In this document: positions 3,086 to 48,700 of the stretch, one piece after another
How the letters are laid out: each line of letters begins with the position of its first letter
How positions within the stretch are numbered: position 1 is the stretch's first letter
Assembly (NCBI GenBank): GCA_964187785.1
Contig: OZ076409.1
Span: 18,106,001 to 18,170,000 of the forward strand
DNA length: 64,000 nt
Direction: 5' to 3'
Source of the DNA: Amphiscolops sp. MND2022
Taxonomy: Eukaryota
Notes under the pieces: model-generated
What the model was told of the DNA's origin: nothing
What the model saw: only the letters and a program-made list of their open reading frames with translations
Database searches by the model: none
Translations under genes and position numbers: made by a program

Positions 3086-3380
3086 ACGAGCAGTTAGACG
3101 TGTTGATTTTCCTTTGATGTGTAAACTAGTCTTGTAACCTACTAATTTTATATTACCCTTCTCAGTAATTTGGTGACCAGCATCGCACTGAACAGCCCAC
3201 TTTAGGAAATATTGCAAAATCTACGTAACGTACCGTGAATATAAGAAGAAATCTATGTTTTTAGATTTTTATGAAGCTCTAAACGAGACTTTTGAATCTA
3301 AATTCAAGCACTGAAAGAATTCCTTCTTAGTACCCGAGATTTTTTAGTTGAAAATTTCGCGAAAAAAAGTTTCACAAAAT

Positions 3381-3631: not shown

Positions 3632-4864
3632 CATTTGTAGCGTTTATTTCTGTGTTCTTAAGTTTCCGAACACAAGTTCACCCGCATATTGGTTTTTCCA
3701 GTTAACTTTTGAAAAGTTTTCAAATAATGGGTTGCAACAGGTTTGTTGTGAACGCTTTGATGTTAATAGTTTTCGTTTTCCTAGGAAAACACGAATAATT
3801 TTAGTTTCAACACGGGAAGTTTATGGCATGTTTTCCACTTTCTCTCTATGAAAAATTTAATACTGAAGAAGTTAGTATCCAAATTATTGAGCTTTTCTCT
3901 GATGACGCTTCATTAAGAAAACGACCAAGGAAACTTTCATTTTGAAACTGCCTTTTCTAGGAATTTTAAAATAGTTCAAAAATCAAGCAAAAGTTTTTTC
4001 AATGTTACGACAATATGAAACCAGAGCCGCATATGCGGTAAAGGAGTCGGCCTAGGTCTTTTTTCCTTCTGACTCGCTTCAATCCCAGTAATAAGAATTT
4101 ATTGAAATTGCACACATAGACCATACTATGGTGTAGAAAATGACTGTAGAAATTTTCGTTCGAATCGTATGGACAGCTTTTGAGAAAAAGTCGAAAAATG
4201 GTTGTTTTTGGGCTAATTTTGGCCATTTTTGGGCTAATTTTGGCTATGTTTCTCTCATTCCAGTCATACGATTTTGATGCCTTTGAGCACGCAGGGGCTC
4301 CTTTGGTTGTAGAATGAATGTGCAAAATTTTATGAAAATCGTATAGACAGTTTTTGAGAAATTTGAAATTTTCATGAAAAGGTCGGGAGAAAAAACGACA
4401 CGATTGGATAAGTAGTCGAAAATTTAATGATACTGACTGACTTTGATCTTTCTTACTATGTTGTCCAGCTATTTGTGCCCTGTAAGTTAGTTTTTCATCT
4501 CAACCTGAACTATACAACAAACCGATGGGCCAAAACGTTCATTTATCAATTTTCTAAGAAATACTTAAGCTGTTTCATTTTAAGCTGTTTGTCATCGTTC
4601 GTACAAAGGTGGGTCAGCTTGAACATCAAAGTCTCTCTTTTTCGGACTATGAGAAATTTTGCCTGAAACGTTTTCTCGTTTAAATCACCAAATCTATCTA
4701 AACAAAAAGATTCTATGCAAAAACAATGGAATACCCCTTCCCATTTGAATAATCTCGCATATGGTGGCTTTGCTGAAGCAAGATTCTATAAACTTCATTG
4801 CTTATCTACTTTTTGCAATATTTCAAACCACTTAGCATTTAGATTTTTAATTTATTCAACAGAC

Positions 4865-27700: not shown

Positions 27701-30700
27701 GAGTCGCCGAAGGGTTGGCCCATGTGACTTTGAAGGATGACGTAGTTTTTGTGTAACCAGCATCTTCAGCCAGAGTTTCCGCTTGGTGGGGTTCTAAGAA
27801 AAACATAATACTGTGGAATGCAAACATGAATGTTTTTACATCGACCAAAGATTAGATCAAGGCACAACTGTTTCACAATGCTTTCAGACAGCAAACTCTT
27901 TAGCTATAACGACCAAGACTTTTAACTTCTTTTTATAGAAACCACTCATCTATCATGACGTTTGATTTTTCGCAGTTTTCATCCATTAAAACTAGCGAAA
28001 CTTTTTCGCGTTCCTCACGAACCTCGCTCCAAAAATTGATAACTTATTCCGTTTTTCTATTTTTTCCTGATACAACTTTATTGGGCACTAACCAGTTTGA
28101 GCTGTCATTATACAAAGAACGTCTGTTTAAGAACTAACTTGTACATTGCGATTGAGCAGGAGCGGAGTTGGAATAGGTTTCGTACGTCGCAGTCAAGACA
28201 TAGCTGTATGATGTTCCTGAAATCACAAATTTCTCAAATACTCAATCAATAGAAGTGTTTACAATGAGCTTCTAATGCAAATTAAACGAACATCAAATTG
28301 CCAACAGTGAGTTGAAGGTTAGCTGAAGAGTGCAAAATGCCAAAAGATTTTGATTGTACGATTTCGATTAGTGCGCGTCGAAAAACAGACATTCGATTTG
28401 ACATTACAGTGCGTAGACAAGCTTTTTCTGCGTATTTTGCGGAAACCATGACACCATTTTGCTGATTCCGAGCTACGCTTACGAAACTCCAGTCTCTTTG
28501 ATGCTGGCGGAATCTAAAAAAAGCCCATCTTTTGATGTTGCTGAAACGAAGAAAATCTTGAATGATTGATTGGTTAATAAATTTATTGTGGAATCCGGGA
28601 TATGAAATGCGGAAACTAAGACAGAAAGTTGCCGACAGATGTCTCGGTTTCCACGGCATGTGTCGAACCCAACCGTGTGGGTCGGCTTTGAAGGACCTTT
28701 CGAGGTTGACTGTCTGTTTTCGGTGTCTGTCTTACTTATGACAGCCATCATTAAGTCCTTCAGTTGACTGAACTCATTCTGTAGTTCGTTTATCTTTCTC
28801 TCATAACTCTCTTTTATTTCAGATAACTGAGACGAGATATCAGAAACCTCGTTGCTATCAGAGTCATTGGCAGAAGACTGAGCCATGTCTGGGTCCGTTT
28901 GAATGGGTGTTTCTGATGAGGAACTAATAACTCTTCCGCTTCTGAGTTCTGTGCCTAGATCTGGGTTCATAGAGGTGAGAGAAAAGGAATTATGAGTGAA
29001 GACTGGATTCTGGATGATTTTCGATGTATTTTACTATTTTGTGCCGTTATTCGAACTCAAACTCACTATTTCTGAACTTGAGATGTAAATGCGATGAGTT
29101 TTACAGTAAGACAAGGATACTAGTAAAGAATGAGAATAGTTAACGAGGATTAAGTAGAGTTCATCCAAATTTCATCGAATAGATATCAATCAAGAAATTA
29201 CTCAGAGTTGTGAAGGTAGCGTTATTTACGATGAATAAGAGATATGTTTTCTAGTTCAAATCTGTCGTAATTCGTCCAACTGGACAGTAGCTAATCGCAA
29301 TTTCGGTCTGTGTAAACTCTTATGGCGGTCCAAAATACAGCAGTTCACGTGTCTTTTCGGGCTGGTAAGACGCTAAATCTCTTACCAGCCGACTCTTATT
29401 GGCTATTGCCAGTTGGTGCTAATTGGTAAGTCACGTGACCGGTGTTGTGAACTGCCGCAAGTTGGCCAAACCACATGGTACATCTACATATGCTAATTAT
29501 GACTAATCATCACTTTACAATGTCGCAATTGCCTGCACACAGTGTCATGGTTTCTATAGCAACTCAAATCATTCAATAATGTACTAATTTCAAGTCAAAA
29601 CAGAGTAAGCTGCATCACAGGATGAGAAAACGATGTTTTTCCAACTAATTCTAGCATTAAAATCAATACTTCAAAAGCAAAGATGGAAACGCGATGAATT
29701 CGTCAGAATATTTGCTGATTTTCAAGTCTAGTTTAGCTCTGGATGAAAATGCGATGAATGGTGGTCTTTTAGCTCGAAAATCAACACGATATGAACTGAC
29801 GATGATAAAAGGATGAACTCGTCTTCAAAATGAATGATTTCCAGCACAATTTAAATCAACGATGGTAAAAGGATGAACTCTCCTCGAAAATAACTAATTT
29901 CCAGCACTAGTGAAATTGACGATGAATTCAGGATGAATTCAGCCAATAAAACAGGTGAAACAGCTAATTCTGCAGTGAAGACAAATATACGATGACTTTA
30001 GGATGAATACATTCAATAAAACAGCAAAATCTAATGAATGAAATTCCAACGATGGGTTTAGGATGAACTCAACTGAAAATTCGGCTAGTTCTAACGTAAG
30101 TCGAACTAGCGATGAATTTACGATGAACTAGTGATGAGTTAATCTAATAAAACAGATATCCAGCACTTCACTCTTTTTTAGGATGAATTAAGGATGTACT
30201 TTCTCATTTCTTGTAGTTTCTGTTCAGGACGATGAAATATAGATGTGTTATGCTCTTTTTAAGAAATGAGAAGCACATTGAAGGTTAATAATCACAAAAC
30301 GACGATGAGTATAGGATGGCTTTCATGCATTTTAAAGTCCCGTGAGATCCGCTGATGGATCACTAAATAAAATCAAATATATGTCCCAAATTTTGTTCAC
30401 CCGCAATCTTGGCGATGTGATTGCGATGAACCTTGATAATATAGCACCGTAATTTCACTAATAGATCAAGTTGTAGGATCACTAAGTCCGCTGATGGATT
30501 AGTGATGAACTTTCCTGAAATTCGTCACGACTACAAGTCCTGAGGCGAGGGAGCTAGTAGAAGTTACAGATTCCATTATTTCTACATCTCTCGGTCCAGT
30601 CTGACCGGAAGACTTCTCTCCCTTATCGTGACAAACCAATATTGAATAAGATAGCACATTAAAAGCTATTGGCAAGATCATTTGTGCGGACACCGGAATT

Positions 30701-33700
30701 AGAGCGCTCAGTATTAAGTAAATATATATAGCTCAAACTCAGGGGGGATAGGGATTAAAGTACAAGTAACGTAGGGTTGCTCACAACCATGGCTCTTATT
30801 ATATGACATCATATTGCCCATATCTAAGTACATAAGACATAATATTTACATTACAAATATTTAGTAGATTATATTTCCATCATGCTGGCATGACACTCCC
30901 CGGGGCGGGATTTGGACTGAGAGTGCAGGGACCAAATGCGCAGAGGATGGTTGTCTCGGCGTTGGCTTCGACTGATCCTTCGTTTGGTTGGGGAGAAAAT
31001 GGCCTTCGTTAGTTCTGAATTGGCATGTCCTTCGTTTGTTCTGTCCTGTGAGAGCTTCTCTGAGAAGAGGACCTTCGGTAATCGTCTTTTCTGGCATCAT
31101 CCTGGGTGATTTCGGTTAAAATTTTCGACGCGGCAACTCTAATTCTTGGTCCATCGAATGTCCGCTGACCTGCATTTTATTGGTTGTCATGCTTTTGACG
31201 GGAGTTTCGGCTGGTTATTTTCGGTAGAAGCTGATTTCTCGGAGAAAAGTTTCCCTCCAAAACGCCTACGCTGAGTAAACAATTCGATTAGCTTCACTGA
31301 CAAATTGGCAGCGAGTCAGGGATGAATGAACGATGAATTGTTTGCTCAGCGATACACTGATGCTGTTTAGCGGAATGGCTGGCGCCGTTACTTGTTTACT
31401 CGCGATGAAAGGAGATGAATCGTTGCCATAGCAACTGTCAAAAGTTACTTCCGCTGCTCGACTTTTGAGTGAAAGAGAAAAGAGATGAATTCGTCGCCAT
31501 AGCAACTGTTGCTCGATCTGATTGGCTGAGACTGAACTTATAACTGAAGGAAAATACAACCGGTTGTCAGCAGCATTCTCATCCATAAATCATCCTCCAT
31601 TCAAGTCGGTTTGAAAATCGCCACGATTTCCTTTGCGCGTTTCCGCTCAACTTCGTCGGTATAGATCTGAGACTGGCAGCTGTCAACAAATCAAATACTT
31701 GAAGTTTTTTGTCAAGTCCTGGGAGGGGACGATCCATTTTCAGAGAAGGCTTGAGTTGGTTGTACTGGGAAGAAAAGTGATGTCAGTATTTGAAATCGGA
31801 GAATTTTCATCGATTTTTCATCTTCTGAATTCAAGTATTTGATTAACATGGCATTCAAGCTGCGCCGCTTTTTGAAATCTTCTATTGAATTTGTTCTTCT
31901 GTAATCATGGTTGATCAGGCCATTTAATTACTGATCAAATTCTCTGCTCCTGGATTCTTCGATTTCTTTCCTTCTTTCACCGTCTTCCATTCTTTTCAGA
32001 TTGTTTTGCAATTTTTCGCGATGTCGGATATCAACTCCATCTATTCGTTACCGGAGACCGAGGCCACAGAAAGTAAGTGCACTATTTTTTCTCTTCTTCA
32101 CAAACGGGCCGGGGAATAATTAGGAATTGAAGGCGTGTCTTGGTTTTAGCGGACTCCGTTCACTCTGTCGGCATAATTTCCGAACTGACTACTTTGCAGA
32201 CAGTTCCGCCTCAAGATGCTCCGATCCCTGCAGCATCTCACGCACCTCAGTATCAACCTGAGCAGCAAACTGAACAGGCCCCTAACGTCCCGTATCTTCC
32301 GCAGTGTAAGTACTATCCTTCCATTCTTCAGTTCAGTCTTCGAATCCCTCATATCTCATCCTTACTCTGTCCAGTAGCTGACTCCTTTTCGTATGGTGTT
32401 TCAGACCACTACCCCTGGTATGCCTCCCTAGGCAGCATCACCTTCGGGTGGTATGACCGCCACATGCGGGACATGCTGCGGGATAGCATCCAGCAGTACA
32501 GTGAGTTTGTCAATTTCCTTTTCACTTCTCTAGGCTATCGTCCGAACACTCCGATGTGATTCCGATGTAAACATCTCATCTGCATGTAGTGTCCTTTGCG
32601 GTCGATTACCCATGTAATTCACCTTCGAGATGAATTTAGGATGTGTCATGAACATTCACAGCTCTTCATGACTGACTCGCTGTAAATCCCATTTTTGAAG
32701 ATGAGTTTTGGATGTATTCTTCTCCGGTTTTCTTTCTTCGCGCGGCGTACGCGCTCTTTCTTCTCTTATCGTCGTCGTCCAGTAACTGTTTCTTCTTTCA
32801 GGCCCCACACCGATCCACGCACCAAGGCCTCGTCCCATCAGCTATTCCGTAGGAGTAGGGACGAGTGATTTCGCCGCAACTAGTGCTGATGCTAGCACTC
32901 AAGGAGGGCCTCCTCAACTTGACTTGTCCTCGTTCCTTCAGGACTTGTCATTCGGGAGTGTAAGTTCTCCTGTCAGGCAGGCGCCAGTGTCTGTACTGTC
33001 GCCAGTGCTGAGGGGTTCTTGCGCCGCTAGTAGTCCTCCTCCTGCTCGTATCACTCTCGACGCTGCTGTGAATGCTGTTGTCGATTGCGTGGATGCAGTC
33101 ATCGATGCCGTTGTCGATACCTCTGATCGAGCAGTCCAGGCCGTTGTGGAAGTCAGTGAGTCCTCCACCTTCCATGATCCTCCTGTTGAGGAACCTGTCA
33201 TCGTTGCCTCTTCTTCTGTTCCTGCCTTTTCAGTCAGCGGCACTGATACACTTGGTGATGCTTCCGTGAGTACTGCCGGCGGTGCTGAGACCCTACTTGA
33301 AGTCCCTGGTGACTTCTCGTCCGACAGCCTTCTGCCTGCTGAACCTGACCGAGAATCTGCTTCTCCCAGTGCTGCTCTCATGTCGACCGTGGCTTCTCCC
33401 ATGGGACCCAGTCTACTGGATAGTGATGACGAACCAATCGCGTCCCGTCTGCCAGGTTAACTAAACAGCTTTAAACTGGTGAAATATCTGATCAGTAGAT
33501 TTTTCATTCATTTCCTTCTTCGCTTTTGCTTTCACTAGCATTTTTCACGTTTTTCTTCTTTTCTATCCATTTTTCATCGTTCTTCTGTTTTCACTATATG
33601 GTTTTCTGCAGTTTTCCATTTTCCATCACATTCTCATCGTCAAAAGTCGTTGAACAATAGTTTTCGCTCTCTAGTCCTTTTTAGAAATTTCATCTCTTTT

Positions 33701-36700
33701 ACATCTTTAAAATTTTCTCTTTTCGGTTTTCGCTATTTGTCGGTGTTTTCTTTTCAGTTTTCATCTCTTTTTCATCGTTAAGTTGTTTTCGCTCTAAAAT
33801 ATCTCAATTTTTGGTTCAAAGTCGTTCTATTTATCTCTTTTCCATCGTTCAAGTTTTTCATTCTTTAAGGTTTCCATTTTTCATTCTGGTGGTGTGCAAA
33901 ATGCATCTCTTTTTCATCTTTTCGTTTTCTTCGTTTTTCGCTTATATTTCCTGATGAAAATATTATTTTACATCATTTTTTCATCACTCCGGGTGACTTT
34001 TGGAAGTTTGCGGTGGTTTTTTCATTTTTCAGTTTTTAAAGATTATTTTAAGATGATCTTGGAATTTTGTGGGAACGTGGTCGTTTTTAGTGGATGTGCT
34101 ATGTGTTGGCATGTGATTATTTCTGTTTGTAGGGCGAAAAGTGATCAAGTCATGGTGGTTTTCTCATGAATACTGTGGGCTTGCACTGGGCTATGCACGA
34201 AGTCATCAATCGCGGCTATCATTCGTTCGATGTTTACTGTGCAAGCGTGATATCAATGTTGGCAGCCGTGGTATCACTACTTTCATGGAGCATTGTCGTG
34301 GGCTCCGTCACCATCGTTTGGACTGTCTGATTCGTTTGTTTCGGGATTTACCGTTGCGGCGACGCGACGGGTCATTGATGAGTAATGAAGAGAGTGTGGA
34401 GTGTAGGAGCAGCCTGGGCGGTGCAATGGTGCCGTTCATTGAGACGTGCCCCTCCTTTAGTGTACTGGAGGTGTTTGAGTTGGAAGCAGCTGGACGACCT
34501 GTGTGGGGGGACGAGGAGGAAGAGGATCTATTGTGTGAAAAGACGGTGCATCTGTTCGTGTGCCTGGTTATTGACTCAATCTATCGTGGGTGTCAGTTCG
34601 CCAGCGTAACGAGTTTGTGGGAGGTGATGGTTGCGTCAGAGCCGCAACATGCCTCTCTTTTCGGTGTTACTTGCGAAGTGAATGACGTGATGGTAATTCG
34701 TATTTCTTTTTGTTTTTTGTTTCATGAAGGTTCGTGTAGATGGAAAAAAAATACATTTAGTGGGTGGTTTTCCATAGGTAGTTTTGAAGCTTGGGTAGGG
34801 GGGATTTTCAACTATTAATTGTGTCGGGTTATTTTTAAGCGGATAGTGAATTAATGTATAGTAAAGTTGATGTTTGTTTTTAGAGTGTGGTTCTACTGAG
34901 TTTGTGGCCGTACGCGATGAAGAGGCTAATCACTCTGTGGTCTAACTGTGGGTTCACTAGCTTTCATGTGGCTGTTGGGCAGGGGCGCGTGACTGGCACG
35001 GTCACAATGTGTTCTCTAGAAGGGATCAGTCAGTACTGTGTCTTCAGTTTTTGTCTGTCTCAGGATTGGGAAAAACGAGTTGTCACGTGGATGATTAACA
35101 TGTGGTGTTGTTTGCTTGGAGAACCTGTTCCACTTGGACTGTGTTGCGATGCGTTGCCACAGCTGGGTGGACTGTTCCAAGCCGCCACTGGCGTTGGGTC
35201 ACTGGAGTTGAAGACGCTGTCATTGTGTGAGATCAGTCGGACAATTGTGGACGTGGGAGGGCGGGCGCTCGGCGGGACTGATATTCATGTGGTGCTGAAT
35301 CATCTGCAGAAAAGACTGAAAGGATATGTCAGGGATCCTCTGTTGTTGAGCTGCCCTCATCTGTTGCAGGTCGGTGTAGTCTTCCGCTTTTATTTGAGTG
35401 TTACTATGAGTTGTACTCTTTGTCTGTTTCTGTTGTTTGTATATTGGTAGTAGTTTGTATTGTAATATTTTGTTTTATCTATGTGGAGCTTGTTATGTTT
35501 TGTTTAGGCGATTTTATCCGGGGAAGTCTACGTGTGGACTCTTGCTGATGTGTGCGATGAATTACGTGCCAATTGGGCAGAAGTGCTGTGTCTAGTTCGA
35601 TTCGCTTCGGGAGACGGGCCAGTAGATGCGTTGGATCTTACTTTGAGGGTGGAGTTCGGGATCCCAATCAGGCTCCGGGCACTTAGTATGGTCTATCGTG
35701 CTTGTTAGTATGTTGTATACTTACCGGGTGGGAAGTTTCTGTAGTTGGCCGTTTTTACGTATTCGAGTGTTTAATCAATTCGCATTTTTCGGGAAGGGAA
35801 CGGGGGGGGTTAGTCCGATTATTTACTGTGTATAGAATTGTTGTGTTTTTCATTTCAGTAGTGACGTCGTACGAAAAGAGTTTCGGGTCTTCATCATTGC
35901 GGAGTTGCTACTGGGCGATCGAGAGTGCATTCTTTGTGAAACGCCTGCTGACTCTACTGGTTGACGAAGAGAGCCTGCCCACTGATCTGGATATCCGTGG
36001 GTGGTTGTTTGTGGATGTAGACAGTTATGTTGTGTCAGCGACTAAGTTACAAGCCCTTATCGCGAGTTTCAGCTCGGATGAGAATTTGACGGAAGATGTG
36101 GCTGTGTATGAAGAGGATGTGTCCCGAGTGCCTAATTTCTTATTGTCTATCGTCAGGAACGTATTATTGCTACCAGGGATTCGTGACGATCTTGCTTTCG
36201 TGCGAAGTGTCTTTAGTTCACCCAGACTGGTTTGTGTGGCGGAAACTGATCTTGTGGCGGAAATTCGCAATTTTACTGGTTTACTTGTGGAAATGGGGCG
36301 GATCAGTTTAGTCGAACAGGATCGAATGGAGCTCGGATTTCTGGAATTTATAAGGGCTTTTCGGTGCGAGCCTAGGCCAGCTGGGGCGACTGCCGAGTAT
36401 TCAGCCGTTGATCTGTTGCGTTGCTGTTCCAGTCGCGGGTCACAGAGTCTGTTACAACTTGTCTTTTGCCTGGGAGGGGTGGTGCAGAGCACTTGCAATA
36501 CCATATGCGAAGCGATCGGGCACCTGCCGAGCGATGTCATGAGCTGTGTGTGTGCAGTAACCTCTGGTTATTTGTCTGCTAATCATGTGCGAAGTTACGG
36601 TAGTGTCAGTGGGCCACTGATGGAAGAAGTGATGGAGTCGCACAGAAGGCTCGTCGATCTATCAGAGATTACAGAGGGCATGTTGTGGGACGACGTCGGT

Positions 36701-39700
36701 ATCGTGGCTGGGGAAGATTATCGTCTCCAGTTATATGCTAGTCTTGGTTACGATGTGACCGGGGAGCGGGCTGCCAGTCCCGAGATTGGAAACTGACTTA
36801 TTAACTGTTTATGTTGTTCATTGTTTTGCTATATAATTTGTTGTATTTACATATTAGTGTAGTTATTCATATGTTGGGAGACCCATGAAAAAGGTCAATA
36901 AATGGAAAGCACAGTAATGACCATAGTGCGAATGATACAAATCCAGATGCTACGGCGGAAAGATCGGTAGTAGTGTGTTTACAACATTAGTTATTTTGGT
37001 GCCCAACAGCTGTTTTTCTTTTGAGTTGTTAGTGATAGTTACAGAGGATATTAAGTACGTGTAAATCAACAAGTTCGTCCAACAGTTCACTTGAAGCATT
37101 GTCTTCGGTATTTTTGTATCATAGATCATCGGTCGCGCATCGCTTTTATGGTGTTCATCGTTATTACATCTCGTGGTAGTGTAAGTAACTCGTCAGCGTT
37201 TGATCTTTGATTTTTCATCTCATTTTCATCACGTTTTCCTCGGTCGACCAAGCGACGTCGTGAAAACTGTTTTTGTCATCGTTTTTACATCTTTCGGTGC
37301 GTCAGAAACATTGCATGTTGTTACATGTGGTTTTTCTACGTATTTCATCATTTTTTCATCTTGCGTTTGATTTGAGCACTTTCGTGCGTTATTTGCTATA
37401 GTTCATCGTTTTTGCATCGCAAGTTTGTCTTGTTCAGTTTCTGCTCATTTTGCTGTATAGTTCATCTTCTTTTCATCGTGCGTTTGAAATGTACGGATTT
37501 TTGCGTGTTTTCGATGTTATTTGGCTATAACGTAAGCGGGGGTTGCATTTTTCGTGTCCGGAGGAAATTTTTATTAATATTGCGGTGTTTCGGATTGTTT
37601 TCTTCATGTATTTTAGCGTTATACGGTTATAACCATTTGTCGTGTTTTTGAATTTGCATGAATTTTATGGTACATGTGTTTTAATCATCGTCGTCATGTT
37701 TCTAATTTGTCAACTTCGGAACGTCATTGCATGTATTTTTAGTTCGAATTCTGGTGACCGCCGCTTGCGTGGCAGTCGAAAATAAGTTCACTCAGCAGTG
37801 GTACTGATAGCCTGTAGGCGTGCAAGGTACTAGTGGCTTCAGTCCAGAGCTGGGTGAGTGGAGCTGCTCCGCTCCTTTCAGATAAATGGAATCTCGTAGT
37901 TTCGGGCTATATATAGTCTATATGTCATTTTTTCGGTCGGTTGTTTGCCATTATTCGTCGAAATGGGTTTGTCCATTTGACGGTCAGTCCGATCAATCAA
38001 TGTGATTGACATCTACGGTTATGCATGTGTCCAGTTTTAGACTATCTGTTTCTTGTATTTGCATGTATGGATGGTTACATGATGTGCTCTTTTAAATGGG
38101 TTGCCCCATTATTGACATGTCGTTATATGTTCGGTGGTAGTTTCATGTTTTCTAATTTTATTTTCGTTCATTTGGACAGGGCTTTGTCGTCACAAGGCCC
38201 CTACAAAACTAACTGAGAATCCACTAGCCGCTGGATAACCAACGCAGCAAGCTTCATCCGAATATGGTTGTGAGCTCCCCGCCTCAACTAACCAGCACTC
38301 TTTTCAGAGAAATGCCAGCCAGCACGAAGGAATGATTTTAGTTTTTCGGTAGGGGTGTTTTGTATTTTATGAGCTGATGTTTACTGGGGGGTGCTCACTC
38401 CTTTATTAGTTTTGTAGGTGTTTCGTCAGTTCTTATATTTTGCATGTAAGTTAGTAGACTTCATGTATTTTCGATTGTTTGTTTCATTTTTATTCGTCTA
38501 GGTTCGGATGGTTTTGGTGTGAATTGCATATATTATCTCATTCATTTTTGAACGGTACATGTATATTTCCGTGCGTTGCTCATTTGTATTGCATGTAGTT
38601 TGGAATTGTTAATTGCTTTCGTGACGTCATTGATTTGGCAGGTCTTTGAACTTTACATGTATTGATCATTTCATTTTTGTGTCGCATAATTTCGTTGCAT
38701 GATTCGAAATAAGGTCGGTTGTTTTTTATCGTTTCGTGGAGTTACATGTTGTTTGCGAATTAGCTGATTTATTGTGATGTTATGTTGATGGTGTTTCCCA
38801 TCACAAAGAGGTGTTGGTAAGTCATTTAATATTTTCGAATTTCCATTTAGACTAAATTCATCGTTTTGACATCCTCCAGCGAAGCTAGAGTATTGTGTCA
38901 GGTTAACGATAAATTCGGTCGCGATTTGATGGTAGTGTCCATCACAAATTCATCTCGTTAATTGATTTCATGTAATTTATGAATAATTGGATCGAGTTCA
39001 TCGCTATTTCATCCTCTGGCCGAGCTAGAGTCTTATGATAGCATGAACGTGAGTGCGTTCGCATTCTGATGGTATTTCCCATCTCAAATGCATCGTTAGT
39101 AAATATTGCATGTTGATTGGTCTATTTTTTGACTGAGTTCATCACTTTTTCATCTCTCGTGTGTCTGAGTTAAATTTTCGTGTGGTTTCATCCTTTTTTC
39201 ATCTCAAATTTTGTGTGTTGTTTTTTCTGGTTTTTTGATCGTTTTTCATCCGTTTTACATCTCGTTTTGTTTGTATGCGGTTTTCATGTGATTTTTAGTA
39301 ACTTTTCATCCATTTTACATCTTCATGTACTTTTTAAGTTAAAATTGCATGTAATTCGTTCGTTTTTGTGATTTGTTCATCCGTAACACATCTCAGATTT
39401 AAAGTGAAACTTTTCTTGGCTAAATCGTTACGTCTATTTTGTTGGTCTTTCTCAGTGCGTTTCTAGCTGAAGTAATCTCATGAATGAGGAAGTCTGGATA
39501 CGTTTTCGGTGTAGGGTTCTCACGTAACCTGTACCTACTTTGATTTGATCTAGACGGTCTAGAACTCATCCTTTCTTCATTTTCGTTTTGCGTGTTTGTC
39601 TGTTGTGACTGGTTTTCGTGTTGTTCGTCTCTCAGAGGTACTCTTATCCTACTTTCATCGCGGGGAGGCGGTAGAATAATTTCTTCTCGCGTTCCAAATC

Positions 39701-42700
39701 TAACTGTAGGTGGTCTAAAGTTGTTGTGATCAGTTTCTACTTGCTGATAGTCTATCCTCGTGGTTATTTCTGGTGGAATTACTTGTGGAGTGTGTTGTTC
39801 TTGTACCCGAGGAATTGTTTCTTCTGAAGGCTCTTTTTCGACCAAGTCTTGATCTAGATTGTCATTCTCATCCTGATCTACTTCGTCGGTCATCGGAATA
39901 TTCGAGTCGAAAATGTCCGTGTCTTCAACCCTTTCGGTATCTGGGTAGAGATGTTTGGACATGTTGATGTCGTCAATCGGAAATTCCGGTTTGAACAATC
40001 TCAGTCGCATGCGATGTACGCACTGAGTTTGGTGTGTGCCTACTTTGCGGATGATGTAGTTGCTATCGGATAGCACTTTAATCACCTTGTACGGTCCTTT
40101 CCAATGGAAAGTTTTAAACTCTTCTTTGCTTCTCTGAGAGTCGTACTTAGGGTCTAGTAGGAACACAAAGTCATTCACCTTCAGTGGCTGTGCTCGTGCT
40201 TTTCTATCATAGTACGTTTTGTACTTGTGATAGGCGGAAATGATGTTGTCTAGATTGTCTCTGAAGATAAAATTCATTTTGTCTAGAATTTCGTTCACGT
40301 CTTTGCACTTTGTTTCAGCCGGTTTGTTTGCGTTTCGGAATTGCAGATCTAGTGAGTTGTATGGTGTTCTTCCGTGGAAAATTTCGGTTGGTGAGCATTT
40401 CAGTGAATCATGATACGTTGTGTTATGGGCCATGATTGCTATGTCGACATAGCGGTCCCATTGTGGTCTGTCTGCGTTTACACTAATCTTAAGGATCTTT
40501 TTCAGTTTCGCGTGCGTTCTCTCCACCATGCCTATTGTCTGCGCGTGCTTTATCGTGGCATGGGAGATGTGAATATCAGCCGCTTTCGCGATTTCAGACA
40601 GAAGTTCAGCCGTGAACGCCGTGCCTTTGTCGGTCAGAATGTGTTTGGGCACATACGCGTGTTTTGTGAAGATCGACAGTAGTCCTCTGACTACGGAATG
40701 TGTGTCAGGTCTCTTCAGCGGAACGGCGAACAGGTAGCGCGAAAAAACGTCAACAGCCGTCAGAATGTGTGTAAAACCGTTCGATGCCGGGAGTGGACCA
40801 ACGATGTCTATTTCCAGCAGGTCTTCTGGTCCGTCGCACGGGTCGTAGATTTTTTGTAACGGTGGACGTAGTTGCGTTTCTTTTACACTTTTAGACTTCA
40901 TGCAGTTTTCACATCCGTCAAGGACTTTTTGAACTTTATAGGCTAAGTTAGGAGAGTAATATCTTTTACGAAGTTCATACAACATTTTCTTTAAACCAGG
41001 GTGTCCTTGTACCGGGCTGTTATGTAGAGTCCTAATTATTTTCAAAATACAGTCTTCAGGAACGACTAACTGCTTATGAGACTCTAGTCCCATGTGGTCA
41101 AAAAACTGTCTGTACAAGACACCGTTTACAACTTGTAGGCGTTTTCGATTTTTGTACAACTTTTGAAAAAACTGGTCTTGCATGTTAACTGGGTGTTGCA
41201 AAATTTCAGTACCTTCTAAAAATCTAATCATTTTTTGGATAACCCAGTTATTTTTCTGGACCTGAATTAGATCGATCCCCTCGGCGGGGCTAACCTGACT
41301 CATTACCGGGTGTGATAATGATACTTTACGGATGAATTGCGAGAGTTGAATCGGCTCGTCCACGTCTGTGAGGCGGTACGTCAGATGGTTGTCAGTCGCG
41401 AAGTCATCTGAGGCCGCAGTTCTCTCACAGTTGGTGAACTTCATCCCTTTCCCATCGTCATGAGCCACGTCAGTGCCAGTTGCCAATTTCATCTCTTTGA
41501 CATCCTTCTGGCGTTTGCATCTGAGTGGTTCGCTCGCGGGGAAGTAATCAGGCTCGTCTTCCTCCTGTTTTGGTGTACGGGAGGCGATGTCGATCTCGAT
41601 CCTGTGAATTGGAATAGTATCAGTCAATTTTAAATGTACACGGTCTTCAGGTCTAATCTCAAGCCGAGATAAGTAATCCGCTGCGGGATTTTCAACTCCT
41701 GGAACATGTGCTAATAGAAAATTGAACTGAAGGGTTTGATCGCAAAAGTTCCAAAGTGAAGGCGGGATATGCTTCGCCTGGAAAAATCTAGTCAAGGCCT
41801 TATTGTCAGTCATAACAATGATGGGTTTTTCGCACCCCACAAAATGTGGCCAAATTCATCGAATGCAAAGTGCATAGCTAAAAACTCTTTGGCATACATT
41901 GTTAGAGACATCTGGCCGCCCTGAAATTTCTTAGAGCCAAATGCAACAGGGGCGTATGTATGTTTGACTGACGGGTCTGCATAATCCTCGATTAACAACA
42001 CATAGCCTGCAGCGTGTTCGCTGGCGTCACACATGATTACCAGTTGTTTATCTGGTAATGGCAATTTCAGAGACACTTTTGTTGCTTTTAACAAACTTTC
42101 ATTAATTTCAAAAATAGCATCTTTATGTTGTTGGTTCAGCTTGAAAGGGACGTCTTTCTTGATGAGTTCCTGTAAACAACAAGTTTTATCAGCTAGACGG
42201 GGAATGTAAGACCTGTAAAAGTTCACAAAACCAAGATAACGTTGCAACGCTTTCACTGAATTGGGGGGTTTCAACTTCGTTAAATAGTCTGTTACGCGTT
42301 TTTCAATGGGAGCAATACCAGTGCTAGAAATGGTTTTTCCCAAGTACTCAATTTGTTTTTGTCCAAATTCACATTTACTCATGCTAAGTTTAAGACCAGC
42401 TTTTTGCAATTGTTGAAAAACAAGTTCAAGGTTGGTAATCAATTCTTCGGGTGAGTGTGCTGCAATTCCAATATCGTCAACGTATTGGGCACAGCGGTCC
42501 GCTTTGACCAGGGGGTCCAAATACTCACGGATTACTCCTGTAAATGCTGACAAAGAACGATTAAGACCTTGTGCTAGACGTAAAAATGCAAAAGTTCTAG
42601 ATCCAAAATTAAACGATAACAGTTGGACAGATTGCTCATCGGCCATTGGAATGCAATGGTAGGCCTGGGAACAATCAAGTTTGCAGAAGTACTTTTTCCC

Positions 42701-45700
42701 GGCCATGTGTTGGGCAGCGTCAGCAATTGTTGTTACGGGATGATTGTGCTCACCGTAATCGTTTTTGATCAGGTGGTTTATTCTTCTCAAGTCAACTAAA
42801 ATCCTCAATTTACCATTAGGTTTACGCTGAGCAAATATCGGGGAAGAGTATTTGCTGTGAGGCAAAGTAGTTATAATCCCGTACTCTTGCATTAGGGCTA
42901 ACTCCACGAGCAAATCGTCCTTCAAATTTGTCGGAGTCGGGAGACTTTGTGAATAAACAGGTTCTTCATGTTGAGGTGTTAACTTAACTTTAAAATCAGT
43001 GTTCATGCCAATATCAAAACGGTGTCTAGCAAAAATGGAGTTGTACTTTACCAGCAACTCCTCTACCTGTAACCGTTGAGACGGAGTAAGAAGCGAGTCG
43101 TCCCAGTTGAAGTTCTTCAGGAAGTTCATCCGTTGTTCATCGGATTGGGACGGGTCAAGCTTCTCGAGCTCTCGCAGTGCCAGAATCTCATCATAAATCC
43201 GTCGCTCAATTGCGTTGAGTTTGTCTGGCTCACTGCACGTCTCGGGAGTTGGGTACCACTTGGTTGACTTCATTTCAGGGTTCACAAACAGTTGGTTGAT
43301 CACTGCTTCGGCTTCATCTGGATACTTGGTGATCAAGTTCAAGTGTTCCACTGGCATGGGCGTGATGTTTGCCGCCTGGTGTGGTGTCGGGATGCGAAAG
43401 TGTGCCAGAGTGGTGTTGGCTTCAAGTGTGTACGTGTGGTTGTTTGGGTTGGTGACCTGGATTGTCGTCTTGCCCTCGTCTAGGTCAACCAAAGCTGGAG
43501 AAACAAGCAAACACGTCTTTCGCATGAATCCAGGTGAGCCCTCAACTGTACCAGTTGTAAGTGAGATGTCCGCGTCACTGTGGACCTGTATCATCACTTG
43601 ATGGAGAGGAGGGATCACTGTTCTAGTACTGGAACACAAATCAATTAAACCAGTTTTGAATCTGTTGTTCTTTTGCTGTCTAACTTGCATGGACATCATG
43701 TGATTAGGGAAGTGGACAAGGTGGTTTTTGATGTCTAAGTTGACTGAGTACTTTTCAAAAAAGGACATTCCAATTAAAATTGTTCCCATTGTTGGAAGGA
43801 TTAGGAACGTTTCTTCGAATACTTTTCCAGCAACGTAAAATCTAAGTAAGACTTGCTTACGCACTGGGACTAAGTTCCCGTTTGCTATTTGAATTTTGAA
43901 ATTCGGAGGGGGGAATTCTTGAAGGATGGCTTCTGGATGAGCCGTTGTTATTTTTCGCAGTTCGGCTTCAGACATTGCACTTTGTATTGCGCCTGTGTCT
44001 AAAAGTGCGCTGTTTTCGTATTTGTCAAACTGAAGAGGGACGTACAGCATTTTATCTTTCTTGTTTAAATGTAAAGTGGGACTGAGAACGTGAATTTCTG
44101 TTTTAATTGCATGTTTTTTAGTTTTTGAAACGTTAATACTACTCTGTTTTGCATGTTTTTTAATACTAAGCCGTTTGTCGATTGTTGAGTGTGAAGTCGA
44201 GTCGTCGTCTAGATGGTGGGTTTCCATCTCTTTGGCATCTTCCACCTGCCTCATGGTGTTTGGTTGCCAGTTCATCGTTTGTTCATCGTTGATTTCAGCG
44301 AGTGGAGAAAAACGGCTGCCGTTGAGTTGACTTGCATTTCTCATCGCTTTTTCATCGTTGGAAAGTCTTCGCTGATAGACGTCGTCAGCTTTTGGTCGTT
44401 TGTCCAGTGAAGGCTGCCATTTCTTCATTGGACGGTCGTGTGTAGTCGGTTGAGTCGAAAGTCGTTGGTCGCGCGTTGTGTTTCTAGCGGGCGGAAATCG
44501 TGGCGGAATCAAAAACCCTGATTTATGTCTTCATCAGAGTAGGTTTCTTGGTCTTCTTCTTCGGTGACTGCTTGCATAGGGTTCATCGGCTTTTGTTGTC
44601 GTTTTAAGTCTTGTCTTCTAGTTCTGTTGTCATCTTGTGAATTCGTTGCGTATGGAATCTTTCCATATGCAGAACTGCTTTCTTTAGGGACACGTCGTCT
44701 GCAATCCCTTGCTGAGTGGCCTGTGTAACCGCAAATCTGGCAGACCAATTTTGGATTGTATTTCGGCTTATCTGGATCGGCTGCTTTCTTCATTGGGATT
44801 GCATCCTCCTTCTTTATGCCGTTCGCTTCGTCTCGTTGTCGGGCGCGACATTCCGTTTTGCGGTGTCCTGTCTTTCCGCAGTAGAAACATTGTCCTTCAA
44901 ATCGTTTTCGTTCTGTCGGTTGTGCGGTCGTCGTTGTTGTTGTAGGCTTCGTCGTTGTAATCGTAGGTGGTGCTGAGGAGGTGACCGCGTTGAATGGTTG
45001 GATTGCCGTAGGTGGCGCGACGTACTGCTGGTACTGGTATTTTCGCATTAGGTAGGTTTTGATTTCCTCTGGGGAGCTCTCTTCTTTGTTTGCCATGGTG
45101 AGCTCTTGTTGAATCTCGACTGGCAGTTTTCCAAACAGGAACATTTTGATTATTCTGTCGGCCTCATTGCCGAAGGCTTGTTTGGCAGTCTTCTTGAGAT
45201 TTTTGAGGAAATCGCCGAATGTTTCTGTTGTGGGATCATAGCGTGCTTGATCCCATTTGTAACGGGCCACTTCCTTTAGATCCTCTTTTGCAAATTCTTT
45301 TCTGAAGAGGTCGAGTACGTCCTTTAGTGTTGTCATCGGCGTTATCTGGATGGATTGCCAGTATTCTATTGCGTCATCTCTCAAAAGGCTTTGAAAGAAG
45401 TGTAGTTTGTTCTCCTCGGTGATTTTGTTGGCAAGCGGGCTAAGGTGGTTGAGGAGAAGGTGTTCAAATTCGACGAATTTGTCTTTTTGGCCTCTGAAAT
45501 TTGGCACGTGTGTCTGCAGAAGCTTCGTGTTGGTGGTTGTGTTTTTGATCCGTTGGGGGATCGTCTCGATTGCATTGAGCAGTCGTTCCTCATTGCTTCT
45601 GGGGGTTGATTCTCCTTCGTCTGAATCGTCTTCTTGGTAACTTCTGAAGTTGGTGAAGCTGGTGGTCGGGCGGTTGGAGCGGGTTTCTGTAGCTCCTGTC

Positions 45701-48700
45701 ACCATGTCGAACCCAACCGTGTGGGTCGGCTTTGAAGGACCTTTCGAGGTTGACTGTCGGTTTTCGGTGTCTGTCTTACTTATGACAGCCATCATTAAGT
45801 CCTTCAGTTGACTGAACTCATTCTGTAGTTCGTTTATCTTTCTCTCATAACTCTCTTTTATTTCAGATAACTGAGACGAGATATCAGAAACCTCGTTGCT
45901 ATCAGAGTCATTGGCAGAAGACTGAGCCATGTCTGGGTCCGTTTGAATGGGTGTTTCTGATGAGGAACTAATAACTCTTCCGCTTCTGAGTTCTGTGCCT
46001 AGATCTGGGTTCATAGAGGTGAGAGAAAAGGAATTATGAGTGAAGACTGGATTCTGGATGATTTTCGATGTATTTTACTATTTTGTGCCGTTATTCGAAC
46101 TCAAACTCACTATTTCTGAACTTGAGATGTAAATGCGATGAGTTTTACAGTAAGACAAGGATACTAGTAAAGAATGAGAATAGTTAACGAGGATTAAGTA
46201 GAGTTCATCCAAATTTCATCGAATAGATATCAATCAAGAAATTACTCAGAGTTGTGAAGGTAGCGTTATTTACGATGAATAAGAGATATGTTTTCTAGTT
46301 CAAATCTGTCGTAATTCGTCCAACTGGACAGTAGCTAATCGCAATTTCGGTCTGTGTAAACTCTTATGGCGGTCCAAAATACAGCAGTTCACGTGTCTTT
46401 TCGGGCTGGTAAGACGCTAAATCTCTTACCAGCCGACTCTTATTGGCTATTGCCAGTTGGTGCTAATTGGTAAGTCACGTGACCGGTGTTGTGAACTGCC
46501 GCAAGTTGGCCAAACCACATGGTACATCTACATATGCTAATTATGACTAATCATCACTTTACAATGTCGCAATTGCCTGCACACAGTGTCATGGTTTCTA
46601 TAGCAACTCAAATCATTCAATAATGTACTAATTTCAAGTCAAAACAGAGTAAGCTGCATCACAGGATGAGAAAACGATGTTTTTCCAACTAATTCTAGCA
46701 TTAAAATCAATACTTCAAAAGCAAAGATGGAAACGCGATGAATTCGTCAGAATATTTGCTGATTTTCAAGTCTAGTTTAGCTCTGGATGAAAATGCGATG
46801 AATGGTGGTCTTTTAGCTCGAAAATCAACACGATATGAACTGACGATGATAAAAGGATGAACTCGTCTTCAAAATGAATGATTTCCAGCACAATTTAAAT
46901 CAACGATGGTAAAAGGATGAACTCTCCTCGAAAATAACTAATTTCCAGCACTAGTGAAATTGACGATGAATTCAGGATGAATTCAGCCAATAAAACAGGT
47001 GAAACAGCTAATTCTGCAGTGAAGACAAATATACGATGACTTTAGGATGAATACATTCAATAAAACAGCAAAATCTAATGAATGAAATTCCAACGATGGG
47101 TTTAGGATGAACTCAACTGAAAATTCGGCTAGTTCTAACGTAAGTCGAACTAGCGATGAATTTACGATGAACTAGTGATGAGTTAATCTAATAAAACAGA
47201 TATCCAGCACTTCACTCTTTTTTAGGATGAATTAAGGATGTACTTTCTCATTTCTTGTAGTTTCTGTTCAGGACGATGAAATATAGATGTGTTATGCTCT
47301 TTTTAAGAAATGAGAAGCACATTGAAGGTTAATAATCACAAAACGACGATGAGTATAGGATGGCTTTCATGCATTTTAAAGTCCCGTGAGATCCGCTGAT
47401 GGATCACTAAATAAAATCAAATATATGTCCCAAATTTTGTTCACCCGCAATCTTGGCGATGTGATTGCGATGAACCTTGATAATATAGCACCGTAATTTC
47501 ACTAATAGATCAAGTTGTAGGATCACTAAGTCCGCTGGTGGATTAGTGATGAACTTTCCTGAAATTCGTCACGACTACAAGTCCTGAGGCGAGGGAGCTA
47601 GTAGAAGTTACAGATTCCATTATTTCTACATCTCTCGGTCCAGTCTGACCGGAAGACTTCTCTCCCTTATCGTGACAAACCAATATTGAATAAGATAGCA
47701 CATTAAAAGCTATTGGCAAGATCATTTGTGCGGACACCGGAATTAGAGCGCTCAGTATTAAGTAAATATATATAGCTCAAACTCAGGGGGGATAGGGATT
47801 AAAGTACAAGTAACGTAGGGTTGCTCACAACCATGGCTCTTATTATATGACATCATATTGCCCATATCTAAGTACATAAGACATAATATTTACATTACAA
47901 ATATTTAGTAGATTATATTTCCATCATGCTGGCATGACAGCATGTCTAATGTTTTAAGTGTATGTTATGGGATTCCGCAGAATTGCGTTGACGGTTTCTC
48001 GGTTTCCACAACACTAGTGGAATTCAATCAAATTTGTACGTTTAAAGACATGTCTGTGGAATCTCAGGAGTTACACGCACAAAATTGTGTTTGCAGAAAA
48101 TAGGCGGGTCTATGCACTGTAATGGAGAGTCAAAACAACAGATTAAATCATTTTTCATAGTCGTTCGTTGGCTTTCAAATTAGAGATGGAGCTATTGACC
48201 ATGTCCGGACCCATGTGTAACGTTACCATTTAATACATAAATAGGAGCATGGTGGTGACAAAAAAATCGCTGAAACACTCTCATCCAACTTTTGAAATGG
48301 CATTGAACACATATGATTGTTCTTTTTACTGACTCTGCCCTTCTGAACAGAAAGGAGGTTACGAACAGACGAGGGCAGACCGAAGGCGAACAGAGAGCCT
48401 GTATAGCAGAAAAACTATTTTTAAAAACTCAAAATTAGCAGGAAATCAGTAAAAAACATCTTTGTTGTAGTTTGGTGTATTACTGCTGTATTTTAGCAAC
48501 ACGCAACGTTTTATCCTTGTTCTGTACTTGGAGCCCCAGTTTACTAGTTGTGTGTACTGCCATGCTGAAGTTTTGCAGTATCGATTATCAAAGTGTACGC
48601 CTGAATGTTTGAGCTTGTGAGCTCTTCTTCACCATTTCGTTCTTGGGCTTATTATCCTTAGAAATTGAATCATTTCTCTCGCAGTTTTTTAATGCTATCA

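Follow-up and report, generated by a model that had tools for sequence, protein, structure and literature searches.

An LTR retrotransposon of Amphiscolops sp. MND2022 carries an antisense gene for a BED-like zinc-finger protein together with many copies of a short DNA dyad, and in related elements the dyad changes along with the finger. The element lies in the window, by which is meant the whole 64,000-nucleotide stretch of contig OZ076409.1 that was analysed. The protein (cargo) is probably a self-recognising activator or anti-silencer of its own element, to judge from sequence comparison; it would work like plant VANC but is unrelated to it.

Anatomy of the element and its antisense cargo gene

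The features of the element, in window positions, are:

28661..47939, minus strand: Ty3/gypsy-type LTR retrotransposon, 19,279 bp, recognised by its ends with a 5-bp TSD (GCATG) and by its domain order
28661..30895, minus strand: 3′ LTR, 17 dyads (29082-30507), upstream of the antisense cargo gene
30896..30910, minus strand: purine-rich tract abutting the 3′ LTR (PPT by position)
31321..31822: three dyads upstream of the cargo ATG (31321 minus, 31580 plus, 31808 plus)
32021..36796, plus strand: antisense cargo gene model, 8 exons, 7 GT-AG introns, 1,049 codons without a stop
32021-32072, 32150-32305, 32375-32500, 32802-33455, plus strand: cargo exons 1-4
34133-34692, 34884-35369, 35508-35685, 35859-36796, plus strand: cargo exons 5-8
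32553..32714, minus strand: three dyads in intron 3
33624..33985, plus strand: five dyads in intron 4, directly upstream of the finger exon
34133..34692, plus strand: exon 5, C2H2 finger of BED-like type (C-x2-C...H-x5-H), plus a helical segment that distant clades share
34884..35369, plus strand: exon 6, predicted helix-three strands-helix (pLDDT 41)
35859..36796, plus strand: exon 8, entirely helical C-terminal region, assigned to no known family
37127..39392: 18 dyads in the DNA that separates the cargo stop from the end of pol (two arrays, 37127-37477 and 38859-39392, and dyads at 38070 and 38776)
39420..44530, minus strand: pol (protease, RT, RNase H, integrase), seven dyads inside
41442, 41490, 43127, 43925, 44225, 44273, 44342: the seven dyads in pol
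44509..46014, minus strand: gag, two CCHC knuckles
45705..47939, minus strand: 5′ LTR, 2,235 bp, TG...CA ends, 16 dyads (46126-47472)

The element has paired TG...CA LTRs and a short TSD, and its pol domains run protease-RT-RNase H-integrase, the order that membership of Ty3/gypsy requires. PBS and PPT were assigned by position and composition; the PBS-like TGG word follows the 5′ LTR at 45704. The gag ATG (46014) lies inside the 5′ LTR, and the 3′ end of gag is a GGGTTTT slippery-type heptamer overlapping the pol frame, where a programmed -1 frameshift may lead from gag to pol. In the window copy, the pol frame is broken in the RNase H region, near 41810-41855. With two mismatches between its 3′ and 5′ LTRs the element is young, and its family is abundant and recently mobile; 49 of the 150 matches listed have at least 98% identity. 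CpG is not depleted (o/e 0.83-1.02 in the element, its flanks and random DNA), and so lends no support to DNA methylation as a silencing mark.

An antisense ORF between pol and the 3′ LTR was also found in relatives, these being copies picked by their cargo, and the splice sites of introns 4-7 are present in six of them. As the cargo is antisense to the genomic RNA, its introns would survive retrotransposition. The gene is under purifying selection, as judged from a dN/dS of 0.05-0.36 in the 20 of 64 exon pairs with estimable dS (dS was saturated in the other 44).

The finger fits the BED (PF02892) pattern C-x2-C...H-x(3-5)-H/C with an upstream aromatic residue, and its C, C, H, H, W and F are invariant in all nine clade A rows. 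It scores 18.2-18.8 bits against Pfam BED (E 0.002), below the cut-off of 20.6; seven of nine members match at E up to 1, and the BED structure of ZBED2 is a weak match (E 0.46). Going by these residues and scores, the finger is BED-like and not a filed BED member. Pfam scans of the cargo gave no VANC-like match and, with exons 3-6 and 8 scanned in their own frames, none to TRP28 (PF04195). Searches for full-length annotated homologues found none, which are weak negatives. All 120 matches listed are ENA proteins without a name, as are the 10 clusters that were looked up. For P0061, the genome gave no match at E 1e-15.

Number, placement and conservation of the dyad

CATC-N7-CATC occurs 69 times in the window, always within 29082-47472, compared with a mean of 1.95 and a maximum of 7 in 100 dinucleotide shuffles. 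The enrichment noticed in the first-pass annotation is thus real, and every coordinate it named was confirmed; its tally of about 15 dyads per LTR and about 27 internal ones was low, the split being 33 in the LTRs (17 + 16) and 36 internal. Other spacers (3-6, 8-12) give 0-5 matches each. The internal dyads comprise three upstream of the cargo ATG, three in intron 3, five in intron 4, 18 downstream of the cargo and seven in pol frames. There are no dyads in the cargo exons (3,151 bp) or the flanks of the element (44.7 kb), as had been noted for clusters, but the statement that arrays mark all non-coding parts was too wide: it holds for the LTRs, introns 3 and 4 and the DNA on either side of the cargo, while introns 1, 2, 5, 6 and 7 (69-191 bp) are empty and seven dyads are coding.

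The dyad is not equally dense genome-wide. Twenty evenly chosen 10-kb stretches (200 kb) contain two, a background lower than the one per 19 kb or so that had been calculated, and the double dyad occurs 16,459 times in the genome versus 19 for the reversed pattern. Of the 35 gaps below 130 bp, 14 measure 59-61 bp, the most frequent spacing; the main array of the 3′ LTR (29621-30507) has a period of about 60 bp, and Tandem Repeats Finder reports 58-60-bp units in three arrays.

Across ten relatives the half-sites are conserved at 3,198 of 3,280 positions (97.5%), compared with 2,509 of 2,870 (87.4%) in the spacer and 10,138 of 12,119 (83.7%) in the flank. Five of the seven pol dyads fall in less conserved linkers, and isolated dyads inside these linkers are kept in relatives.

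Motif and finger in related elements

The first-pass annotation had raised co-variation of motif and finger across related families, and the elements compared are consistent with it, the motif differing along with the finger. All ten close relatives keep the dyad (37-72 per 20 kb) and have TT or ST as helix residues, as does a clade C element at 49% exon identity, with 41 dyads in 15.7 kb. The ten distant elements of clade B are laid out in the same way but contain just 0-6 CATC dyads, alongside inverted dyads of their own. Seven of them, with helix residues SS, carry 5-20 copies each of ATGTGG-N9-CCACAT, which is absent from the HN elements; the three with HN carry 10-14 copies each of AYGACTG-N7-CAGTCRT, found 0-3 times in SS elements. 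Separate EM runs (on L155, and on L151 with L159) recovered the SS-type half-site and the same 7-base core; L151 and L159 have five strict sites each. The SS and HN dyads share one geometry (7-base core), and the half-site differs with two helix residues. Among 18 short HN loci outside the sample, only 2 contained the HN motif.

The two varying residues lie five and four positions before the first zinc histidine. By counting, they match S66 and N67 of Hermes, which read bases there according to the accessible text of PMC10368747; at the position preceding the histidine, clades A-C have E or D and Hermes has R.

Because the same motif is found at 49% exon identity and a different one at 72%, the motif tracks the helix and not overall distance. 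The window's dyad is consistent with the finger in 22 of 22 elements and the two clade B motifs in 10 of 10, relatives not being independent samples. Only two motif switches are well supported (A to B, and SS to HN), both at lineage splits and so confounded with descent. The non-coding DNA of SS and HN elements (45-51%) is unalignable, so that site-by-site switching could not be demonstrated. Two distant, cargo-less-looking LTR elements, a small control, are without any of the motifs.

The trees and alignments leave out L041 (both trees), L147 (RT tree), and L035 and L049 (alignment A3). L099 was dropped as a cargo-less control when a distant cargo was found in it. A dispersion score proved too blunt, L151, L155 and L159 scoring like controls. 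A candidate motif of clade D was not validated; it is based on six sites within a single element, and an unrelated repeat dominates its count across the genome.

A candidate self-recognising regulator and its counterparts

Self-recognition, as proposed initially, is supported in part, by the confinement of the dyad to the element and its co-variation with the finger; binding remains a candidate activity. On this model the element would encode its own sequence-specific DNA-binding regulator. Transcription of the cargo, probably from the 3′ LTR side, followed by splicing and translation, would give the modelled 1,049-residue protein, whose BED-like finger would read the CATC half-site; paired half-sites one helical turn apart could be bound by two fingers, by analogy with Hermes. 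Dyads spaced by about 60 bp in the LTR and other non-coding parts would gather the protein in many copies, and solely on members of the family. If VANC and TnpA are a guide, the LTR promoter and the cargo's own promoter would be kept active against host silencing in a positive loop. Finger and motif would diverge jointly between sub-families, and the pattern suggests that each sub-family makes a protein that may recognise and switch on its own copies.

Arrays of host-factor sites are common in LTRs, and the dyads might likewise bind host transcription factors, different ones in each sub-family, with some other function for the cargo protein. Lineage, too, is followed by the motif class, and the half-sites contain words that may be of host-factor kind, the RUNX consensus TGTGGT in SS and TGAC in HN. 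Such an origin is nonetheless unlikely, given that SS and HN dyads keep one geometry while the half-site changes with two helix residues, that the sites surround the cargo gene itself, and that the dyad is nearly absent from the host-like DNA of the flanks and of the 200-kb sample, where targets would be expected. It is quite unlikely, too, that the protein recognises the dyads for another purpose, such as self-repression (copy-number control), insulation, or coating of cDNA for nuclear entry or integration. All of the co-variation evidence would fit equally, the sites extend over the whole element and not the promoter alone, and the BED domains of hAT transposases serve transpososome assembly in the accessible account of PMC10368747. 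However, VANC and the transposase-derived regulators, the closest tested analogues with such a site layout, act by derepression or activation, as far as their available descriptions go, and an abundant, recently mobile family is more in keeping with something that promotes activity than with a brake.

The 58-60-bp units, and the inverted form of the clade B dyads, which could fold, would also suit dyads left over from a 60-bp tandem repeat in decay, or dyads serving as RNA signals (packaging, hairpins); in neither case would a protein read them as DNA. This we regard as very unlikely: conservation of the half-sites far exceeds that of spacers and flanks, the dyad of the window is a direct repeat present in both orientations, and isolated dyads persist in the pol linkers of relatives. 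Deviations in clade B halves are almost never Watson-Crick compensated (2 of 89 and 0 of 18; G-T in 35 and 9).

If the cargo does activate its own element, this would be sequence-specific, element-encoded anti-silencing in an animal LTR retrotransposon, with a natural panel for the BED recognition code. It could help to explain the continued activity of a single retrotransposon lineage at high copy number, and in its roughly 16,000 double dyads the genome would have a regulatory network ready for use. The literature covered, mostly outside subscription journals, described no LTR element of an animal that combines a BED cargo with cognate arrays. A 2019 review, in its accessible part, counts just three anti-silencing mechanisms that elements themselves encode, every one of them in plants (PMC6719617), and the role of gypsy antisense accessory genes is described as unknown in the available text of PMC7264820 and PMC11963269. 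Here, both a protein domain and its candidate site can be named, and between sister sub-families two helix residues differ, as does the motif, so that a long-open question becomes testable by a simple cross-wise binding assay.

Published systems are compared below as the accessible parts of their reports describe them. Hermes shares with the cargo a BED-type finger, a 4-base half-site, paired sites bound by two domains (PMC10368747) and the position of the varying residues. It differs in that no terminal inverted repeats or 8-bp TSD were seen around the cargo and the catalytic acidic residue is absent at its presumed position in exon 6. The predicted strand pattern of exon 6 fits an RNase H-like DDE core (pLDDT 41 model), and we infer only that it may be such a core without the acidic residue. 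In hhalign it aligns onto strands 1-3 of hAT proteins with a score of 15.3, within shuffled controls (maximum 16.3); fold searches, uninformative with so low a model confidence, gave a small phage alpha-beta protein as best match (Z 8.2) and nothing from Foldseek, and the exon 8 model (pLDDT 59) has generic helical matches only (Z up to 5.6). Profile searches of solved structures with the cargo gave nothing significant, profile comparison with this genome's hAT proteins did not rise above shuffled controls, and Pfam found no PF05699 (C-terminal dimerisation domain) in the cargo. Atlas gave PF05699 clusters at 0.90-0.91 for the last exon of clade D, as a lead only, and none such for that of the window. 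Between clades A and D, hhalign matched exon 5 (E 0.0017), and exons 6 and 8 not significantly (E 0.14). Homology to Hermes beyond the finger, and a hAT-transposase origin of the cargo, are hypothetical.

TnpA and AtMu1 illustrate how a transposase or its catalytically dead derivative activates cognate copies sequence-specifically (bioRxiv 10.64898/2026.08.24.746577). They differ in being plant DNA transposons that regulate themselves, and the words LTR, retrotransposon and BED are absent from the accessible text of that preprint. By analogy, a path from transposase to regulator is a plausible route for the cargo. Tentatively, and with rather less confidence than in the regulator itself, one may imagine that a gypsy lineage long ago captured a hAT transposase that lost its catalytic centre and became a private transcription factor; finger and arrays would since have diversified as a lock-and-key code (TT/ST, SS, HN, possibly RE) over thousands of copies, allowing each sub-family a selective escape from host silencing.

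Foamy-virus Tas and HTLV Tax/HBZ are retroviral transactivators encoded by accessory genes between pol/env and the 3′ LTR, and act on their own LTR. The cargo resembles them in its position before the 3′ LTR, but the element here has no env, its dyads are not limited to the LTR, and no sequence similarity is expected. HTLV antisense genes are mentioned in PMC11963269, as far as its text was available.

The plant gypsy elements Retand, Grande and RIRE2 have antisense ORFs between pol and the 3′ LTR, for which DNA binding and a regulatory role were proposed by the authors (PMC11963269, PMC7264820). Likenesses are the antisense accessory gene in the same position, its conservation across copies and the family-specific repeats nearby. 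The cargo, in contrast, is a multi-exon zinc-finger gene without a TRP28 domain, and its repeats come down to one defined dyad, which occupies the LTR as well and differs where the finger differs, whereas the accessible Retand texts define no cognate motif.

The anti-silencing systems VANC21 and VANC6 of Arabidopsis VANDAL (MULE) transposons (PMC5735166) provide the nearest functional parallel proposed here, as a works-like comparison only. The carrier is a gypsy LTR retrotransposon and not a MULE/VANDAL DNA transposon; the cargo has a BED-like finger, its candidate site is a spaced dyad that occurs in either orientation, and binding and demethylation are putative. Both VANC and cargo are element-encoded accessory genes. 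In the accessible text of PMC5735166, short motif arrays lie in introns, intergenic and terminal non-coding DNA, not in exons, the motif differs between families and the arrays are tied to tandem repeats. The element described here likewise combines an accessory gene kept by selection with a short, family-specific motif in dense non-coding arrays.

The element and its antisense gene

The dyads lie in an LTR retrotransposon, whose Pfam matches (gag knuckles, then protease, RT, RNase H and integrase) follow the Ty3/gypsy order. Its LTRs are 2,235 bp long and differ from each other at two bases.

Features mapped in the window
28661-47939, minus strand: Ty3/gypsy-type element, with LTRs and GCATG target duplication
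4839-5141, 13992-14336 and 17597-17914, minus strand: exon-like frames, fibronectin type III-like as judged by eye
25290-27851, 54397-54693 and 56372-56719, minus strand: exon-like frames, fibronectin type III-like as judged by eye
4012-4423, 18131-18665 and 54879-55147: a further dispersed repeat, present three times, with sub-repeats of 130-170 bp inside it

Because the fibronectin type III-like frames flank both its sides, the element has probably landed within an intron, that of a same-strand host gene. The host is probably an animal. The RNase H frame is broken in this copy, at a point that is read through in some relatives. The gag frame begins within the LTR at 46014 (28970 is the counterpart in the other LTR) and crosses the primer-binding site; relatives likewise show gag similarity inside the LTR. 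A GGGTTTT heptamer immediately ahead of the gag stop (44509-44520), with pol in another frame, is a candidate programmed -1 frameshift.

An antisense gene (the cargo), located between pol and the 3′ LTR, is modelled as eight exons with seven GT-AG introns and 1,049 codons with no stop inside. Over six relatives, the acceptors of introns 4, 5 and 7 and the donor of intron 6 are all conserved, and the intron 5 donor is conserved in four. As dN/dS is 0.05-0.36 in 20 of 64 exon pairs (dS being saturated in the other 44), the cargo is functional by sequence criteria. Exon 5 encodes a C2H2 finger that matches zf-BED in Pfam at E 0.002, slightly below the cut-off. A genome search with this exon gave 2,452 first-look candidates, and the 150 scored span 100% to 57% identity.

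In its order of parts, from the finger through a helical region and a helix-three-strands unit to a helical C-terminus, the cargo resembles a hAT transposase minus the catalytic aspartate, and the chances of a hAT origin are about even. Fold searches and profile comparisons of the cargo gave nothing above controls. In the Atlas, PF05699 clusters appear at 0.90-0.91 for the last cargo exon of a more distant group of elements (clade D), which is a lead; they are not listed for the window's last cargo exon. The genome also has several ordinary hAT transposons that carry BED fingers (among L051-L080), and these 30 loci hold one CATC dyad in 94 kb.

Dyad arrays and their conservation

The pattern CATC-N7-CATC (the CATC dyad) occurs 69 times in the window, always within 29082-47472, against a mean of 1.95 and a maximum of 7 in the shuffled window. 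Other spacers in the 3-12 range give 0-5 CATC pairs each. The wider site is W-rich, with TT ahead of the first CATC and W bases within the spacer. The LTRs hold 33 dyads, internal non-coding DNA 29 (in 5.4 kb) and the pol frames seven; none occurs in the cargo exons (3,151 bp) or the window flanks (44.7 kb). The clustering described in the first-pass annotation is thus borne out. Its proposal that all non-coding parts of the element are marked is too wide as worded, since the five short cargo introns have no CATC dyad.

Equal density of the dyad genome-wide had been named as a refuting condition; it is sparse there, with two in 200 kb sampled as 20 evenly chosen 10-kb stretches. Genome-wide there are 16,459 double CATC dyads about 60 bp apart, and 19 when the pattern is reversed. 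Reading by eye puts the first 100 places of the double dyad in about ten clusters, of which two are at cargo matches and one resembles an unrelated simple repeat. At G000:C1:6315833-6324333, the distance between two dyad arrays is 8 kb and not 17 kb; this may be a derivative that has retained its sites without cargo or gag-pol.

All ten close relatives have pol and carry 37-72 CATC dyads per 20 kb. When 53 dyads (one LTR plus the interior) were mapped onto these ten, 410 of 530 site-by-relative pairs were alignable. Identity was 97.5% for half-site bases, 87.4% for spacers and 83.7% for flanks, a strong trend rather than a p-value, because the relatives' history is common and BLAST favours conserved seeds.

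Co-variation of motif and finger

A profile search led to more distant fingers and, through them, to clade B of the same genome, whose ten elements have an identical layout (pol in nine) and just 0-6 CATC dyads, bearing inverted dyads in their place. Hermes reads bases through S66, N67 and R70, ahead of the zinc ligand H71, according to the relevant section of PMC10368747. At the equivalent pair, placed by its distance ahead of the first histidine, all 11 readable fingers of the window's clade A and of clade C (the L041 finger is unreadable and was left out) have TT or ST; seven fingers have SS, three have HN, and clade D has RE. The seven SS elements of clade B carry 5-20 ATGTGG-N9-CCACAT each (up to two mismatches), and the three HN elements none; the latter carry 10-14 AYGACTG-N7-CAGTCRT each, and the SS elements 0-3. 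Background per 10 kb is 0.5 and 0.0, respectively. In the six elements examined, 87 of 95 clade B sites fall outside mapped coding DNA.

Six of the ten clade B elements served to derive the SS and HN patterns. Separate EM on L155 and on L151 plus L159 gave a half-site resembling the SS one; its 7-base core is the same, and it far exceeds shuffles. Among short loci outside the derivation set, the CATC dyad is found in 29/29 and 9/9 clade A/C loci, and the SS motif in 18/18 loci of the clade B search set and 0/18 HN loci. The HN motif is found in just 2/18 HN loci. These loci are 3.6 kb long, with the LTR outside them, and are closely related to the training set.

A clade C element has 41 CATC dyads despite 49% finger-exon identity (pol 79%). 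Since 49% exon identity goes with the same motif and 68-72% with a different one, the motif, on these comparisons, tracks the helix pair, not overall distance. The two solid motif switches both coincide with lineage splits; site-by-site change was attempted, and the SS and HN non-coding DNA is unalignable.

The window's element and L047 have sister RTs and finger exons 59% identical, and in L157 the RT is of L149 type and the cargo of L151/L159 type. As RT and finger trees disagree, cargo modules appear to have moved between backbones; with the same helix class in both cases, these swaps are no test of co-variation. Internal tandem duplications of 0.5-3.7 kb cover parts of cargo or pol at L037, L043, L049 and L157, and the LTR pair beside L045 is just 80% identical.

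L099, drawn at random (pol 46%), also carries antisense cargo, distant but related in its finger, and belongs to clade D, a large group (8,018 candidates, 150 of them scored). A candidate motif, GGCC-N4-WCGGC, chosen post hoc from one copy, has eight matches in six places (0.1 expected). Its genome-wide excess is due to another repeat. That repeat is short, interspersed and very abundant; of 40,087 pattern matches, it accounts for the majority of the first 100.

Ends of the repeat, containing GGCCCAAGTCGGC
L081:3594
L081:8679
L093:1521
L098:8556
L143:2984
L153:7622 (this copy lies within a cargo intron)

Few elements serve as true cargo-less controls. Two of them, L094 and L095 (pol 23-26%), show no cargo match, no CATC dyads and no dispersed dyad clearly over host-flank scores. 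For three finger-exon homologues (P0002, P0049 and P0061), the best match in the genome is below 50% or absent. They are further finger types, probably from other genomes, and the finger-motif system may therefore extend beyond the present genome.

Proposed function and known systems

The dyad/finger feature is real: an antisense finger gene, intact and under selection as modelled, accompanies selected dyad arrays around the cargo and in the LTRs, and motif class matches helix class in the sequences compared. The self-recognition suggested by the first-pass annotation gains support from half-site selection and co-variation, and falls short of proof. The cargo would be expressed from the 3′ LTR side and spliced, and two fingers would bind each dyad, loading cooperatively onto the 60-bp arrays. 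The element would then be activated or shielded from silencing, with positive feedback. This predicted self-recognising activator or anti-silencer, encoded by the element, is fairly probable. CpG is not depleted anywhere in the DNA examined, and the silencing opposed, if any, is for that reason more likely histone- or piRNA-based.

With motif class following helix class, it is unlikely that the arrays are sites for a host factor. Self-recognition that serves repression, insulation or integration would fit the same matching and is slightly less likely still. That the dyads are a repeat remnant or an RNA signal is improbable; an RNA signal is disfavoured by clade B dyads, where a deviation hardly ever has a compensating one.

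No description of a finger gene with cognate arrays was found in the literature searched, mostly outside subscription journals and supplements. Rotifer LTR elements with extra ORFs are reported (PMC5408684), and element-encoded anti-silencing comprised three cases, all plant, as of 2019, according to a passage of PMC6719617. A 2026 preprint (bioRxiv 10.64898/2026.08.24.746577) describes, in its available text, sequence-specific activation by transposases and their dead derivatives in plant DNA transposons; neither LTR nor BED occurs as a word in it. The cargo matches in position and orientation the antisense ORFs of Retand-type plant gypsy elements (PMC11963269 and PMC7264820, which describe the function of these ORFs as unknown), but TRP28 was not found in the window's cargo. 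A parallel is VANC (PMC5735166), where an accessory gene goes with arrays of a short motif in introns and elsewhere in non-coding DNA, the motif being family-specific and differing from family to family. The window's cargo is not a VANC; the likeness is in the way of working.
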